From a virus, in the IMG/VR virus record IMGVR_UViG_3300021405_000009, positions 34,240 to 98,239 of that record: a DNA stretch of 64,000 nucleotides; one strand, 5' to 3'. The translations under genes and the position numbers were made by a program. Below the pieces are notes generated by a model that was given only the letters and a program-made list of their open reading frames with translations, was not told the origin of the DNA and did no database searches. This document shows positions 29,251 through 53,313 of this stretch, piece after piece (within the stretch, counting starts at the first letter, position 1; every line of letters begins with the position of its first letter).

Positions 29251-29466
29251 ATGGTTCCCGAAACCGAACGCCCCTACAGCATCCAGGACCTCTGCGTCCT
29301 GCACAATCTCAGCCCGGCGACGATCGTGAAGTTATACGAGAACGAGCCCGAAGTGGAGAACACGCAGGCGGCACTTCCGCCACGAGGGAAGTGCCGCCGT
29401 TACCGCACGCTCAACGTCCCCAGGCACGTGTACCTGCGAGTGCGGGCAAAAATGCGCAGCCGTTAA
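29251..29466 (+). CDS. Putative excisionase (winged-HTH)
   Basis: YSIQDLCVLHNLSPATIVKLYENEP...RYRTLNVPRHV; converges on the integrase. Confidence 0.65.
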   Translation: MVPETERPYSIQDLCVLHNLSPATIVKLYENEPEVENTQAALPPRGKCRRYRTLNVPRHVYLRVRAKMRSR

Positions 29467-30617
29467 TCCCAGCAGCGGACGGGGAGTTTACCGAAGCGCT
29501 CTTCCGCCCGCTTGCTGGCCGTCGTCTTATAATGCTTCTCGACCACAGCCACGGTGTCACCCAACGCATCGGCCACATCGGTCAGCGTCCAGCCCTGTCC
29601 CAGCCAGAAGTCCACGGCCGTATCGCGAAAGCGATGCGAGAGGTTGCCCTTGATGTAGAGCCCGGCGTCCTCCATGAGAGTTTGCAGGTCGCGCTGCCAC
29701 AACCCCGTCGCCGACTCGGCCAGGCTCGTGCCGTTCCAGAAGACATAGCGCGGGTTGCTGTTGGCCACGGCGATCAATTCCTTATGGAGCGATGGGGCCA
29801 GGCGCTGGCGCACGGGGCGATTGGTTTTCTTGCGCTTGATGCGCAACCAGCCATCCGCAATGCTGGCCCGTTCGAGCAGGGCAACATCGACGATGGCCAT
29901 TCCGGTCGCCACCTGGCAATGAATGAGCGCAGTCATGGGAGCGATCTTATGCGACGCGTGAGCGAACGTGATCGGCACCTGCAGAATGAGTTTCGCGATC
30001 TCCTCTTCGGTGTAAGGCTGCGGTTCCAGGCGTTCTTCGTCCTGGCGGCTGAGCTTAATGGCTTTGAGCGAATCGAGCAGCCGTTTGAGCTGGTTGGCGT
30101 CCGTGCAATAGGCGCGCAGGAAGCCGCGCAGATTCTGCTGCGCTTTCTGTCGCGTGGTGCCTGCTGGCCAGTTGGTCCAGGATGCGCGGAACTCGATCAG
30201 GTCCTCGCGGGTGAGTTGATGCGCGAAGAGTTTCCCTCGCGTCTCCAGAAAAGTTTGCAGACGGTCGAGATGGTAGGTGAGCTTGCGCAGCGTCGCCTTA
30301 CTGACCCCCTCGCCTTGCTTGCCCAGGAGATAGGTTTTGGCGGCAGCGTCGATCGACGTGGAGGGTTCGGCGGAGACGACGGTGGCCGAGTTTGGGTCGA
30401 GCAGGATTTCCCGCTCCCGCTTGGCGCGCTCGGCACCGGCCCAATCTCTGGCCCGAGCCGGAGCCTGGTGAACGAGACCCTTCACCGACCAGCGCAGATG
30501 CTTCCAGCATTTGCAGCGGCTGGAAAAGCTGTCGTCGCTGTAGGGGCAATCTTTCTTGTGGCGAACGAAGATGGTGACGGTGGGACCGAGGTAAATGTGC
30601 TGCTGAGCGGTTCTCAT
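29463..30617 (-). CDS. int: Tyrosine recombinase/integrase
   Basis: SAM-like domain, TGMAIVD (box I region), RKKT, SHRFRDT (HxxR), LGD, KHY (catalytic Tyr). Confidence 0.85.
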   Translation of the reverse strand: MRTAQQHIYLGPTVTIFVRHKKDCPYSDDSFSSRCKCWKHLRWSVKGLVHQAPARARDWAGAERAKREREILLDPNSATVVSAEPSTSIDAAAKTYLLGKQGEGVSKATLRKLTYHLDRLQTFLETRGKLFAHQLTREDLIEFRASWTNWPAGTTRQKAQQNLRGFLRAYCTDANQLKRLLDSLKAIKLSRQDEERLEPQPYTEEEIAKLILQVPITFAHASHKIAPMTALIHCQVATGMAIVDVALLERASIADGWLRIKRKKTNRPVRQRLAPSLHKELIAVANSNPRYVFWNGTSLAESATGLWQRDLQTLMEDAGLYIKGNLSHRFRDTAVDFWLGQGWTLTDVADALGDTVAVVEKHYKTTASKRAEERFGKLPVRCWD

Positions 30618-30681
30618 GTGACAAATACTCGACAATTTTTATCATTTTGTCAAGTTTTATTGATTCTAAACGACTTAAGTA

Positions 30682-31567: not shown

Positions 31568-31604
31568 AAGCCACAGGGATTTCACATCTTGTGGCTTTGT
31601 TTTT
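31568..31604 (+). terminator. Intrinsic terminator between convergent genes
   Basis: AAGCCACAGGGAT-ttcac-ATCTTGTGGCTT-TGTTTTT. Confidence 0.6.
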
Positions 31605-32401
31605 CACAGTCGATACCTCATCTCCCAGTGGCGGCGATACGCGTCGGCAATCACGCGCGAGACGAAGTTGCGATCGATCTCCGGCTGCAGCGGCGAGCTG
31701 GCTTCGGCCGCACGGCAAATCTCCGAGCGCTCGGTCGCATTGCGGATGACCCAATCCTCCGTGTACTCGCCGTTGCGAATAGCGATCAACAGATCTTTCT
31801 GCGGAGAGGGTAGCGTGATGATCCCGCTGCGCATCAGTTCTTCGCACTCGATCAGCAGCCGGATGATGTGCATGGCGAACTTGGTGTCGTAGCCGTACTT
31901 CGCGACCAGGTCGGGCCGATTCACGTTGCGGCTACGCTCGCCCGTCATGCGCATCAACTGCGCGGTCGCGAAGCCCAGGAATTGTTTGTAGTGCTTCCGG
32001 CACAGGAACTGCAGACGATATTTCTCGACGGCATGGAACCAGGTGTCGAACGCACCGGCTGGCACCGGCAGCGCATTCTTCGCGAAGATGGCGTGCAGGA
32101 TGCTGGGGTTCCCCTTGCAGGCCAGGTGCGCCCATTTCTGCAGCCCGTAGAGCGTGATGTCGATGTCGCTGGAATCGTTCTTGCGTTCATTCGTGCTGGT
32201 GGACCAGACGAAGTGTTCATAGCTATCGACGCCGATGATTTTTTCTGGCGGCTCGACGTAGACGCCATAGATGTCGAGATCGTCATAGCCGGAGACTTTC
32301 GCCCCGTGCAGGGCGGAGCCACCCACGAACAGGTGGATGATCTCCGTCCAGTACGGGAACTTCGCTGCCTTCACGTGGTCGAGCAGTGCGCTATCGACCA
32401 T
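31604..32401 (-). CDS. RlaP-like DNA polymerase beta superfamily nucleotidyltransferase
   Basis: GGSALHG...DDLDIYGVY, DITLY, KGNPS, GYDTKFAMHIIRL motifs of the YcgL/RlaP family. Confidence 0.8.
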   Translation of the reverse strand: MVDSALLDHVKAAKFPYWTEIIHLFVGGSALHGAKVSGYDDLDIYGVYVEPPEKIIGVDSYEHFVWSTSTNERKNDSSDIDITLYGLQKWAHLACKGNPSILHAIFAKNALPVPAGAFDTWFHAVEKYRLQFLCRKHYKQFLGFATAQLMRMTGERSRNVNRPDLVAKYGYDTKFAMHIIRLLIECEELMRSGIITLPSPQKDLLIAIRNGEYTEDWVIRNATERSEICRAAEASSPLQPEIDRNFVSRVIADAYRRHWEMRYRL

Positions 32402-33047
32402 TGCCGTTCCCGTTCTCCAGCAGCAGCATCACGCGCTCTACGCCGATGGCGAAGCCGAAGCCCCGATCGTAGGGACCTCCGGCGCACACCTGCTTCTGGG
32501 CTCCCAGTTGGTCGCAGTTAATTTCAAAACCGTCGCCGGTGTAGTAGGCGTAGCGGGGTTTGACGGCGGTGTTGAGGTTGAATTTTTTAGTGAAGACGGT
32601 CATCATCCGCGTGGCTAACTCGATGAAGAGTTCGCGCTGAGCGTCGGGATTGGTCGGGTTTAGAATCTCGACGCCGAACTGCGTGAACTCATGATACCTG
32701 CCCATCTGGGGCCGTTCATTACGCCAGCATTTCGTGATATAGAACACTCTCACGTCGCGGCGAGCCTTCCAGAGCGTGCTGGCAATCAGTCTGCATGTGA
32801 TGGTTCCTTCCGGCCGCAGACAGATACTTCTGGCAGTGGACGGCTCCGGGAATGAATACATGTGACGAAGCGCTTCTTCCTCGCCCTGGTACAGCTCGGT
32901 CAGATCGAGGATGGGGAGTTGGATTTCGCGCGCCCCGAAAACTTCGGCGATGGGGGTGAGTGTATTGCATATTCTGCGGTACCTCTCGGCGTGTTCGTAT
33001 ACCAAAACGCGCGTGCCGCGCGGCGCAAGCTTCAGATGTAAGTCCAC
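32391..33047 (-). CDS. Minimal histidyl-tRNA-synthetase-like protein (class II catalytic core only)
   Basis: PRGT, motif 1 (EIQLPIL), LRPEGT, motif 2 WRNERPQMGRYHEFTQFGVE, YYTG, GGPYD, motif 3 GFAIGVER; only 218 aa, no anticodon-binding domain. Confidence 0.85.
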   Translation of the reverse strand: MDLHLKLAPRGTRVLVYEHAERYRRICNTLTPIAEVFGAREIQLPILDLTELYQGEEEALRHMYSFPEPSTARSICLRPEGTITCRLIASTLWKARRDVRVFYITKCWRNERPQMGRYHEFTQFGVEILNPTNPDAQRELFIELATRMMTVFTKKFNLNTAVKPRYAYYTGDGFEINCDQLGAQKQVCAGGPYDRGFGFAIGVERVMLLLENGNGNGR

Positions 33048-33162
33048 GTTCTACGTCCCCTTCCAGGATTTTTTGCGGTGAAGAGAAAAGCACTTGACAT
33101 GCCTCTCTATACTGACAGGTAAGATTATATTTAGCACTGTCAAGTGCTCCGGAATTTACCCG

Positions 33163-34036: not shown

Positions 34037-34468
34037 ATGAAGCAGATTCACGGCAATCTTTGGAGCTGGTACGGGAAGCCCTCCATCATCGTGCTCATCA
34101 CCACCAATGGGATCGTGACTGCGGGCGGGCGGGCCATCATGGGGCGAGGCTGCGCGGAAGAGGCCAAGCTGCGGTTCAAGGACATCGACCTTGAGCTGGG
34201 CCGCAACATCCGCATCCACGGCAACCAGATGTACTCGCTGGGCGGCGGCCTGATCTGGAGTTTTCCGGTGAAGCGTGACTGGCGCGACCAGGCTGACCTC
34301 GGGCTGATCGGCGAGTCGGCCAGCCAGCTCGAAGCCATGGCGCTGAAGCGCGCCGAGGAACATTTCATCCTGCCCCGGCCAGGCTGCGGCAATGGCGGAC
34401 GAACCTGGGATGAAGTTGAGCCGGTGATCGACTTCCTGCCTGACAACGTGCTGGTCATTTCCAAGTGA
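34037..34468 (+). CDS. Macro-domain (ADP-ribose-binding/hydrolase-like) protein
   Basis: ITTNG...MGRGCA...FPVKRDW...LPRPGCGNGGRTWDEV. Confidence 0.75.
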   Translation: MKQIHGNLWSWYGKPSIIVLITTNGIVTAGGRAIMGRGCAEEAKLRFKDIDLELGRNIRIHGNQMYSLGGGLIWSFPVKRDWRDQADLGLIGESASQLEAMALKRAEEHFILPRPGCGNGGRTWDEVEPVIDFLPDNVLVISK

Positions 34469-51720: not shown

Positions 51721-53313
51721 ATGCGATATCTCATTCACCGCGCAGTAGCGATCGGTAACCCGCCCCAGAGTCAGCCGCTGAACGACCGTCAGTCGAAAAA
51801 CAGCGCTGGCGGTTACAGTTTCACTCTGGATAAGTGGGGCAAGCTCGACCGTTTTCTCATCCTAGGCAGCGAAGGTGGCAGTTACTATGCCAGCGAGCAG
51901 AAGCTTACCGAGGAGAATGCCACCAATCTGGCAGCGTGTGTGAAGGAAGATGGCATTAAGGTGGTCAAGCGCATCGTCGAGATCAGCGATGCGGGCCGGG
52001 CTCCGAAGAACGACCCGGCGCTGTTCGCTCTGGCTTACGCCTCGGCGAAGGGCGACGACGACACGCGTAGTGCGGCTCTGGCTGCACTGCCCAAGGTCGC
52101 ACGCATCGGCACGCATCTGTTCCACTTCACCGCCTTCGTCAACACCATGCGAGGCTGGGGCCGTGGACTGCGGAAGGCCGTAGGTAACTGGTATGCCCAA
52201 GCTGGCGAAGAAGATTGGGATCGCCTGGCCGAGCAGGTCACAAAGTACCAACAGCGTGAGGGCTGGAGCCACCGCGATCTACTGCGCCTGGCGCACCCCA
52301 AGCCGACCTGCCGTCCGCACCAGGCAATCGCTAAGTGGGTAGTCAAGGGCGGAGAGTTGAACCAGACCGCGCCCGAGAAGTTGGTGGGCCACGTTGAACT
52401 GCAAGAGGCCACGACGCCGAAGCAGGCCGTGAAGCTCATCACCAAGTACGGGCTCGTGCGCGAGTCCGTGCCCACTGAACTGCTGAAGTCTCCTGAGGTA
52501 TGGGAGGCCCTGCTCGCGCGGATGCCCATGACGGCGATGATTCGCAACCTGGGCAACCTGTCGAAGTGCGGGTTGCTGACTCCATTGAGCGAAGCCTCGA
52601 AGATGGTAGTCGAGCGGCTGAGCGAGGAAGCGCTGCTGAAGAAGGCGCGCGTACATCCGATTCAACTCTTGATCGCGCAAAAGACTTACGGCTCCGGCCA
52701 TGGCAACAAAGGCAAAGGCGAATGGACGCCCGTGCCCCAGGTAGTTGACGCATTAGACGGCGCTTTCTACTCAGCCTTCCAGAACATTATCCCGTCAGGC
52801 AAGCGCTTCTACCTGGGGCTCGATGTGTCGGGCTCGATGTCCTGCGGCGAAGTAGCCGGAGTCAACGACTTCACGCCTCGCGAGGCATCGTCCGCCATGG
52901 CCATGGTCACGGCGCGCAGCGAGCAGAACTACTACGTCGCTGGCTTCCAGGAGCGCATGATCCAGCTCATGATTACGCCGAAGTCGCGGCTCGATCAGAT
53001 CTGCTCTGCTACGGCGAAGCTGCCGTTCGGCTCTACCGATTGCGCCCAGCCCATGCTGGACGCGCTGGCAAAGAAGTTGCCGGTGGACGTGTTCGCGATC
53101 TACACCGACTCCGAGACCTGGAGTGGAACAACGCACCCAACCGTGGCCCTGGAGCGCTACCGCCAGCAGACTGGCATCCCGGCGAAGTTGATTGTCGTCG
53201 GCATGGTGGCCAATCCGTTCACGATCGCCGATCCGAACGATGCTGGCATGTTGGACGTGGTCGGATTCGATTCAGCGACGCCGCAGATCATCTCACAGTT
53301 CGCGGAGGCGTAG
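51721..53313 (+). CDS. rsr: Ro60/Rsr TROVE-domain RNA-binding protein
   Basis: NSAGGY, RFLILGSEGGSYY, GRAPKNDPALFAL, GWGRGLRKAV, KYQQREGWSHRDLLRLAHP, MPMTAMIRNL, RVHP, vWA DVSGSM, TDSETW, DAGMLDVVGFD. Confidence 0.95.
   Translation: MRYLIHRAVAIGNPPQSQPLNDRQSKNSAGGYSFTLDKWGKLDRFLILGSEGGSYYASEQKLTEENATNLAACVKEDGIKVVKRIVEISDAGRAPKNDPALFALAYASAKGDDDTRSAALAALPKVARIGTHLFHFTAFVNTMRGWGRGLRKAVGNWYAQAGEEDWDRLAEQVTKYQQREGWSHRDLLRLAHPKPTCRPHQAIAKWVVKGGELNQTAPEKLVGHVELQEATTPKQAVKLITKYGLVRESVPTELLKSPEVWEALLARMPMTAMIRNLGNLSKCGLLTPLSEASKMVVERLSEEALLKKARVHPIQLLIAQKTYGSGHGNKGKGEWTPVPQVVDALDGAFYSAFQNIIPSGKRFYLGLDVSGSMSCGEVAGVNDFTPREASSAMAMVTARSEQNYYVAGFQERMIQLMITPKSRLDQICSATAKLPFGSTDCAQPMLDALAKKLPVDVFAIYTDSETWSGTTHPTVALERYRQQTGIPAKLIVVGMVANPFTIADPNDAGMLDVVGFDSATPQIISQFAEA

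Follow-up and report, generated by a model that had tools for sequence, protein, structure and literature searches.

The locus described here raises the question of whether two overlapping phage genes, one encoding a shortened HisRS-like protein (termed mini-HisRS) and the other a nucleotidyltransferase of the RlaP family, act as a single unit on tRNA ends. An earlier note on this DNA had read them as a coupled module that edits and charges tRNA ends (or charges a protein or small molecule), perhaps restoring tRNAs damaged by host defences. The reading favored here, to which a probability of roughly 0.55 is given, is that two widespread phage genes are joined only in this lineage: a core that, at the level of its family, would charge tRNA-His, and an RlaP repair enzyme.

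The window, i.e. the whole stretch of DNA that was analyzed, is 64,000 nt long and comprises bases 34240–98239 of the 98,239-bp IMG/VR record IMGVR_UViG_3300021405_000009 (CheckV completeness 77%). Positions refer to the window, except where a locus number is attached.

Layout of the mini-HisRS and RlaP open reading frames

The mini-HisRS open reading frame (positions 32391–33047, minus strand) starts with GTG and encodes 218 amino acids that make up a class II HisRS catalytic core. A purine-rich Shine-Dalgarno sequence, GGAAGGGGA, is found 8 nt 5′ of the GTG. The RlaP-family Pol-beta nucleotidyltransferase (positions 31604–32401, minus strand, 265 aa) starts with an ATG that lies within the last mini-HisRS codons; the overlap is exactly 11 nt (positions 32391–32401, minus strand). 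GGAG/GGGA sequences precede this ATG inside the end of mini-HisRS, and together with the overlap they are consistent with translational coupling of the two genes, as far as can be read from the sequence.

On the 5′ side, a divergent intergenic gap of 46 nt (positions 33048–33093) separates mini-HisRS from a tightly packed plus-strand operon starting at 33094. No sigma-70 consensus promoter for the mini-HisRS/RlaP operon was found in this gap. On the 3′ side, a hairpin of 11 bp with a T-run (positions 31568–31597) is situated between the RlaP stop codon and a converging 194-aa open reading frame, and is likely to mark the end of the operon. A tyrosine recombinase/integrase is encoded nearby (positions 29463–30635, minus strand). 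The layout of the pair, its bounds and the nearby recombinase thus point to a small two-gene operon in an integrase-proximal accessory region of a temperate phage. A tRNA-His gene is absent from the whole 98-kb phage record, and neither hisG, Thg1 nor a CCA-adding enzyme was found in it.

The operon divergent from mini-HisRS/RlaP also contains a stand-alone macrodomain of 143 aa (positions 34037–34468, plus strand). This matches the PADLOC DarG model (4.9e-10), phrog_335, and the macro/Appr-1-p structures 5M31 and 5M3I in the PDB (1e-4). By these similarities the phage could use it against ADP-ribosylating defences, e.g. DarTG.

The 218 amino acid protein is a HisRS catalytic core

The 218-aa protein matches PF13393 (tRNA-synt_His, 6.6e-21) and TIGR00442 (hisS, 5.9e-39). 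The hisS match is confined to model positions 2–147 and 258–315 of 406, and its score, 134.2 bits, is below the curated cut-off of 286.75. Thus the insertion and anticodon-binding domains are absent, as had been described in the earlier note. In a profile alignment (33 homologues), the matched parts of E. coli HisRS are residues 22–146 and 243–316. The note had also proposed a comparison by AlphaFold; an AF2 model with a pLDDT of 90.5 matches E. coli HisRS 1KMM in Foldseek (TM 0.81, E 2.5e-16). No family matching mini-HisRS is present in PHROGs.

The class II motif residues L44/P45, R109, E111 and R205 are conserved, with motif-2 Arg109 and Gln114 and motif-3 Arg205 all kept. The His-pocket residues E80, T82, Q123, E127, Y168/169 and Y193 are present and correspond to E. 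coli E83, T85, Q127, E131, Y263/264 and Y288; these positions are invariant or nearly so across the family. LRPEGT, the YY motif and GG-x-Y are all found. The initial description of a HisRS-like protein with class II motifs 1–3 and His-type signatures is therefore confirmed by these motifs and by PF13393.

In comparison with bacterial HisS (class IIa; E. coli 1KMM, 1KMN and 2EL9, and T. thermophilus 4RDX with tRNA-His), mini-HisRS shares the catalytic fold, motifs 1–3, the His-pocket residues, the motif-2 loop and the predicted motif-1 dimer interface. It is half the size of HisS, however, and leaves HisS model positions 148–257 (including the insertion domain) and 316–406 (the anticodon-binding domain) unmatched.

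Structure prediction gives a homodimer formed through motif 1 (ipSAE 0.86, with 0.01 for the best control), and at least 97% of the contacts are the same between runs, with a partner pLDDT of at least 88. Of proteins with solved structures, 20 of 30 pairs of one chain and 1 of 23 single chains reach this ipSAE mark, and the pass may come from the memory of the model because of the likeness to solved HisRS dimers. According to these models mini-HisRS is probably homodimeric.

A search of BFVD with the AF2 model as query shows that a bare class II core fold is shared by other phage proteins of 185–222 aa with 7%–17% identity, e.g. A0A6J5M2P2 and K7QJG2 of Escherichia phage phAPEC8. Thus further minimal class II synthetase-like phage families may exist.

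The mini-HisRS family

The window mini-HisRS has 440 near-length homologues. At 50% identity there are about 70 clusters of mini forms that score above canonical HisRS, and in the tree the mini forms are separate from canonical HisRS (SH-aLRT 98). The diversity of the family is mostly viral, much of it from records of 250–675 kb, and its members are mostly from jumbo phages.

A clade of 16 chromosomal copies from Pseudomonadota is nested inside the viral sequences. These are found in non-phage contexts with pyruvate kinase, M9 collagenase and glycerate kinase; the Undibacterium copy, for example, has pyruvate kinase and collagenase as its neighbors. A Pfam tally of 84 bacterial neighbors of mini-HisRS displays no shared family. 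The presence of the chromosomal copies shows that the family is not phage-only. The hosts in this clade (loci L058–L082, e.g. L061, L066 and L072) are Undibacterium, Hahella, Massilia, Cellvibrionaceae and Arenicella.

Every E. coli HisRS active-site position that is mappable through the 33-homologue profile alignment was compared. Across the 97 main-family sequences there is no variation at the positions equivalent to E. coli E83, T85, R113, Q118, R121, R123, Q127, E131, R259, Y263/264, Y288 and R311. Among these are Gln118 and Arg123 of the motif-2 loop, whose Gln and Arg residues read G-1:C73 in HisRS.

Main-family proteins are also depleted in histidine itself: 61 of the 97 have no histidine at all, and the overall content is 0.29%. 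This near-absence suggests that the enzyme must be made while His-tRNA-His is scarce, and the depletion points to a phage answer to a shortage of tRNA-His or of HisRS.

The extra sequence of longer family members is either unannotated or consists of an intein or a RhuM fragment, and no fusion to an informative domain was seen. In P0143 (564 aa), an intein with a LAGLIDADG domain interrupts the mini-HisRS homologue near LRPEGT.

A full-text literature search found no description of a phage HisRS of ~210 aa, and a 2022 review names only HisZ as a HisRS paralogue (PMC9437257).

Association of mini-HisRS with tRNA-His genes

Phage mini-HisRS genes are located within tRNA arrays: tRNA genes are present within 6 kb of mini-HisRS in 36 of 49 non-redundant viral loci, and 16 of the 49 have a tRNA-His gene within 1 kb. 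The nearest tRNA is tRNA-His in 9 of the 36 loci (3.55 expected, P = 0.004) and a flanking tRNA is tRNA-His in 13 (5.6 expected, P = 0.0003); these statistics count related phages as independent, and the significance of the linkage is thus inflated. Sinorhizobium phage Phosso, the only cultured example, has a tRNA-His gene 276 nt upstream of mini-HisRS. The tRNA-His genes near mini-HisRS encode G-1 and C73.

The commonest Pfam families among 103 neighboring phage open reading frames are RNA ligase (6, and RtcB 1), class I Trp/Tyr synthetases (4), PheRS-type (3) and Asp/Lys/Asn-type (2) proteins, and PTH2. Several of the neighboring synthetases retain anticodon-binding domains. RNA ligases and other aminoacyl-tRNA synthetase genes thus recur beside phage mini-HisRS, which represents a looser shared theme.

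A fusion of Clp_N with HD_4 (a RelA/SpoT-type HD domain) is found directly downstream of mini-HisRS in three related phages, at L011:6611–7660 and also in L013 and L026.

The linkage to tRNA-His, the motif-2 loop and the histidine depletion together argue for a tRNA-related role of the HisRS core. Judged by these sequence features, histidine activation and the charging of tRNA-His through its acceptor end alone are the most likely activities of the main family. Two class II cores are known to charge tRNA via acceptor-stem contacts alone, the engineered N-terminal catalytic fragment of E. coli HisRS and the natural mini-AlaRS of giant viruses. The HisRS fragment was made in the laboratory and retains the insertion domain, and mini-AlaRS is a form of another synthetase; mini-HisRS, by contrast, is a conserved family that occurs naturally in phages. 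If tRNA-His is charged by the 210-residue core, this would be among the smallest natural aminoacyl-tRNA synthetases, and would provide a clean natural test of acceptor-stem-only tRNA identity as well as a compact part for orthogonal translation systems.

A divergent subclade that includes the window copy

The window mini-HisRS is part of a small, well-supported subclade of the tree (P0001–P0005 and L141). All 97 main-family sequences have R at the column of E. coli Arg259, but the window protein has Pro164 there, with Arg165 adjacent. P0001–P0005 read P, L, H, R and R in this column, and four of the five have a basic residue in the next one. In place of Arg123, the window protein has His119 and the subclade His or Tyr. 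The earlier note had overlooked these two positions, at which the window copy departs from HisS.

Members of the subclade hold 3–7 His residues, i.e. histidine is not avoided. The known contexts, those of the window and of L141, are integrase-proximal and without tRNA genes. The window copy shows that the mini-HisRS family is also found in temperate phages that have no tRNA genes.

The altered Arg259 and Arg123 positions, the histidine content and the lack of a tRNA-His gene make the activity of the window copy itself less certain than that of the family, and it may be a weaker or altered enzyme. In this regard, it should be noted that the catalytic fragment engineered from E. coli HisRS works poorly. 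The dN/dS value between the window and L141 copies is 0.11, which indicates that the gene is still under purifying selection.

The subclade could have taken on a new function, in which His and ATP are still bound and are put to a use other than the bulk charging of tRNA-His, e.g. histidylation of another acceptor, the making or binding of a histidine-nucleotide compound, or the sensing of histidine. The correlated change of the Arg259 and Arg123 equivalents is in keeping with this, as are the loss of histidine avoidance, the move out of tRNA arrays and into an accessory island that is close to the integrase and has a DarG-like macrodomain next to it, the persistence of purifying selection, and the fact that truncated synthetase paralogues often act on non-tRNA targets (review PMC9437257). 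On the other hand, the complete His pocket and the retained motif-2 Arg109/Gln114 and motif-3 Arg205 are those of a HisRS, two subclade members keep Arg at the canonical column, and L141 has neither a carrier protein nor another conserved partner gene. A new function is therefore a possible but doubtful explanation. The subclade with its altered catalytic arginines constitutes a natural experiment on the HisRS mechanism.

The RlaP open reading frame

The overlapping 265-aa protein matches PF10127 (RlaP) at 1.7e-20, with 74.2 bits against a cut-off of 23, and phrog_388 at 1.1e-45. Its assignment in the earlier note as an RlaP-like Pol-beta nucleotidyltransferase that overlaps mini-HisRS by 11 nt was correct. 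The GGS/DxD/D residues are intact, and G27-G28-S29, D41-x-D43, D79 and D81 are invariant in an alignment of 22 homologues. No sequence relative was found in the PDB at E ≤ 0.01.

RNA ligase is the usual functional partner of RlaP. An RNA ligase is encoded in the same phage (positions 39900–40997, minus strand; PF09414 and a PHA02142 OB domain), 7.5 kb from RlaP and thus non-adjacent, and the closest RlaP relative, at locus L144, is in a replication module. Also present in the phage record are Ro60/TROVE (positions 51721–53313) and a metallophosphoesterase. With RNA ligase, Ro60 and a metallophosphoesterase in the same phage, RlaP fits the usual RNA-repair equipment of phages.

RlaP enzymes extend the 3′-OH of damaged RNAs by one or two nucleotides (December 2025 preprint, PMC12776372). 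It is proposed there that RlaP restores nucleotides lost from cleaved tRNA, with ligation as the following step; the repair concerns breaks in the anticodon loop and not the CCA end (PMC12776372). The window gene is of the same family, above the cut-off, as the RlaPs of Pseudomonas fluorescens and P. aeruginosa and T4 NrdC.11 (PMC12776372), and it likewise has the Pol-beta catalytic residues and an RNA ligase in its genome. Unlike those genes, it is not beside a ligase and overlaps mini-HisRS, an arrangement seen only in this phage. Within this family, which by now has been characterized in part, the window RlaP is unremarkable.

Conservation of the gene pair

The earlier note had suggested a gene-neighborhood survey and had named a lack of conservation of the pair in other genomes as evidence against the module. 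Such a survey was carried out with 88 mini-HisRS loci (57 viral, 31 bacterial), using tblastn for RlaP within 6 kb. RlaP is found in one of the 88 loci, L002, a jumbo phage where it is 4 kb away. Genome-wide, PF10127 is present in 15 of 50 mini-HisRS viral records and in 9 of the 18 near-complete ones, usually tens to hundreds of kb from mini-HisRS.

The nearest relatives of the two genes each lack the other. In L141, which of the loci with available DNA has the mini-HisRS closest to that of the window (75% identity), the upstream genes are the same, but mini-HisRS is directly followed by a converging integrase homologue, without RlaP. The closest RlaP relative, L144 (80% identity), is located between a primase-helicase and a sliding clamp, and there is no mini-HisRS in its 62-kb record. 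All-against-all clustering of the neighboring open reading frames across loci gave no conserved partner gene of mini-HisRS. A scan of metagenomes with alignment A2 yielded only L141 and L142, and a scan with the single protein yielded nothing.

Because the pair is not conserved, the coupled-module reading is unsupported. Both protein identities and the tRNA-related role of the HisRS core stand, while the coupling itself does not find support in other genomes. The RlaP pairing looks like a local accident of gene order. The 11-nt overlap could still reflect a real functional link that is invisible to a survey of distant relatives.

For both RlaP P0274 (82% identical to that of the window) and mini-HisRS P0006 (52%), the longest contig listed has 98,548 bp; a single related phage is their probable source.

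The survey bears most directly on the idea that the two enzymes are obligate partners, RlaP restoring damaged tRNA ends for subsequent charging by mini-HisRS. This is suggested by the overlap within one operon, by the extension of RNA 3′-OH ends by RlaP together with the need of repaired tRNAs for re-aminoacylation, by the further RNA-repair genes of the phage, by the recurrence of RNA ligases near mini-HisRS in other phages, and by L002, which has both genes. An obligate partner would not be expected, however, to be close by in only 1 of 88 loci, to be encoded in only half of the near-complete records and usually far away, to be replaced by an integrase in L141, or to occur without mini-HisRS in the L144 record. 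In addition, RlaP in the preprint mends anticodon-loop breaks before ligation and not the CCA end (PMC12776372). An obligate module is thus unlikely.

A related proposal, that a re-tooled mini-HisRS is translationally coupled to RlaP as a new two-enzyme unit on tRNA 3′ ends, is more improbable still. In such a unit histidylation would protect or mark RNA ends that have been extended by RlaP, or the pair would rescue tRNA-His once it has been attacked by an anticodon or acceptor-end nuclease.

Proposed function

The favored reading, two widespread genes joined in one lineage, can be outlined as follows. mini-HisRS and RlaP are each widespread in phages, and would form one overlapping operon only in this phage lineage, in the accessory region beside the integrase. 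mini-HisRS is a divergent member of a family of class II cores of ~210 aa, which derive from HisRS and are without its insertion and anticodon-binding domains. Most members of this family would most likely bind His and ATP, make His-AMP, and pass the histidine on to tRNA-His, which would be recognized only through the acceptor end (G-1:C73). The phage would gain a HisRS activity that is blind to the anticodon. RlaP would extend a broken RNA 3′-OH by one or two nucleotides, and an RNA ligase such as the phage's own would seal it. The common theme would be that tRNA is kept usable under attack by host defences, rather than an obligate two-part machine. Histidine activation, the charging of tRNA-His and any cooperation of mini-HisRS with RlaP are inferred.

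Some Pol-beta nucleotidyltransferase toxins block tRNA acceptor ends. By analogy with these, the two genes could be a prophage toxin-antitoxin or defence pair, with a nucleotidyltransferase that modifies tRNA 3′ ends and a HisRS-like protein that opposes or guides it, and a position on the integrase side is typical of prophage accessory and defence genes. Neither mini-HisRS nor RlaP has a match among the PADLOC models at E ≤ 0.01, however, hundreds of close homologues of this typical RlaP/phrog_388 nucleotidyltransferase occur without a HisRS partner, and the pair is not conserved. Such a pair is very improbable.

A HisZ-like regulatory subunit acting on the host ATP phosphoribosyltransferase is hardly credible: HisZ is likewise a HisRS paralogue without the anticodon-binding domain, and there are weaker matches to TIGR00443 (5.4e-23) and to the HisZ structures 3OD1 and 1Z7M, but hisS scores better (TIGR00443 gives 81.6 bits against a cut-off of 271.65), HisZ has 300–390 aa, is without adenylation activity and works with HisG, whereas in the mini-HisRS family the ATP and catalytic residues, which HisZ can do without, are all retained and invariant, and the family adjoins tRNA-His and has no hisG link (no hisG in the phage record or among the most frequent families listed for 187 neighboring open reading frames).

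Other features of the tRNA arrays

In loci L001–L057, the bases 'AT' are found directly before position +1 in 211 of 427 non-His array tRNAs, and the bases upstream of tRNA-His genes are 'ATG' (AT, then G-1) in 28 of 38. The 'AT' leader is thus shifted by one base in tRNA-His, which implies that G-1 is retained. From the sequences, 'AT' looks like a shared RNase P leader signal that is shifted one base for tRNA-His.

Several phages with mini-HisRS have a second kind of tRNA-His(GUG), without an encoded G-1 and with A73, beside the canonical G-1/C73 copy. The A73 copies are at L039:5252–5327, L049:6692–6764, L050:4979–5054, L051:5275–5348, L054:5309–5384 and L088:3702–3776.

Among 465 array tRNAs in L001–L057, 45 of normally short isotypes are 82–93 nt long (e.g. 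L005:5898–5984 and L028:5814–5903). Fifteen of these are Lys, and the others include Asn, Gln, Trp, Arg, His and Cys. Their length suggests that they carry introns or extra arms.

Lastly, tRNAs with a CUA anticodon (labeled Pyl by ARAGORN) are found near mini-HisRS in two jumbo phages, at L050:10367–10523 (minus strand) and L051:11783–11870 (minus strand). These may be amber suppressors.
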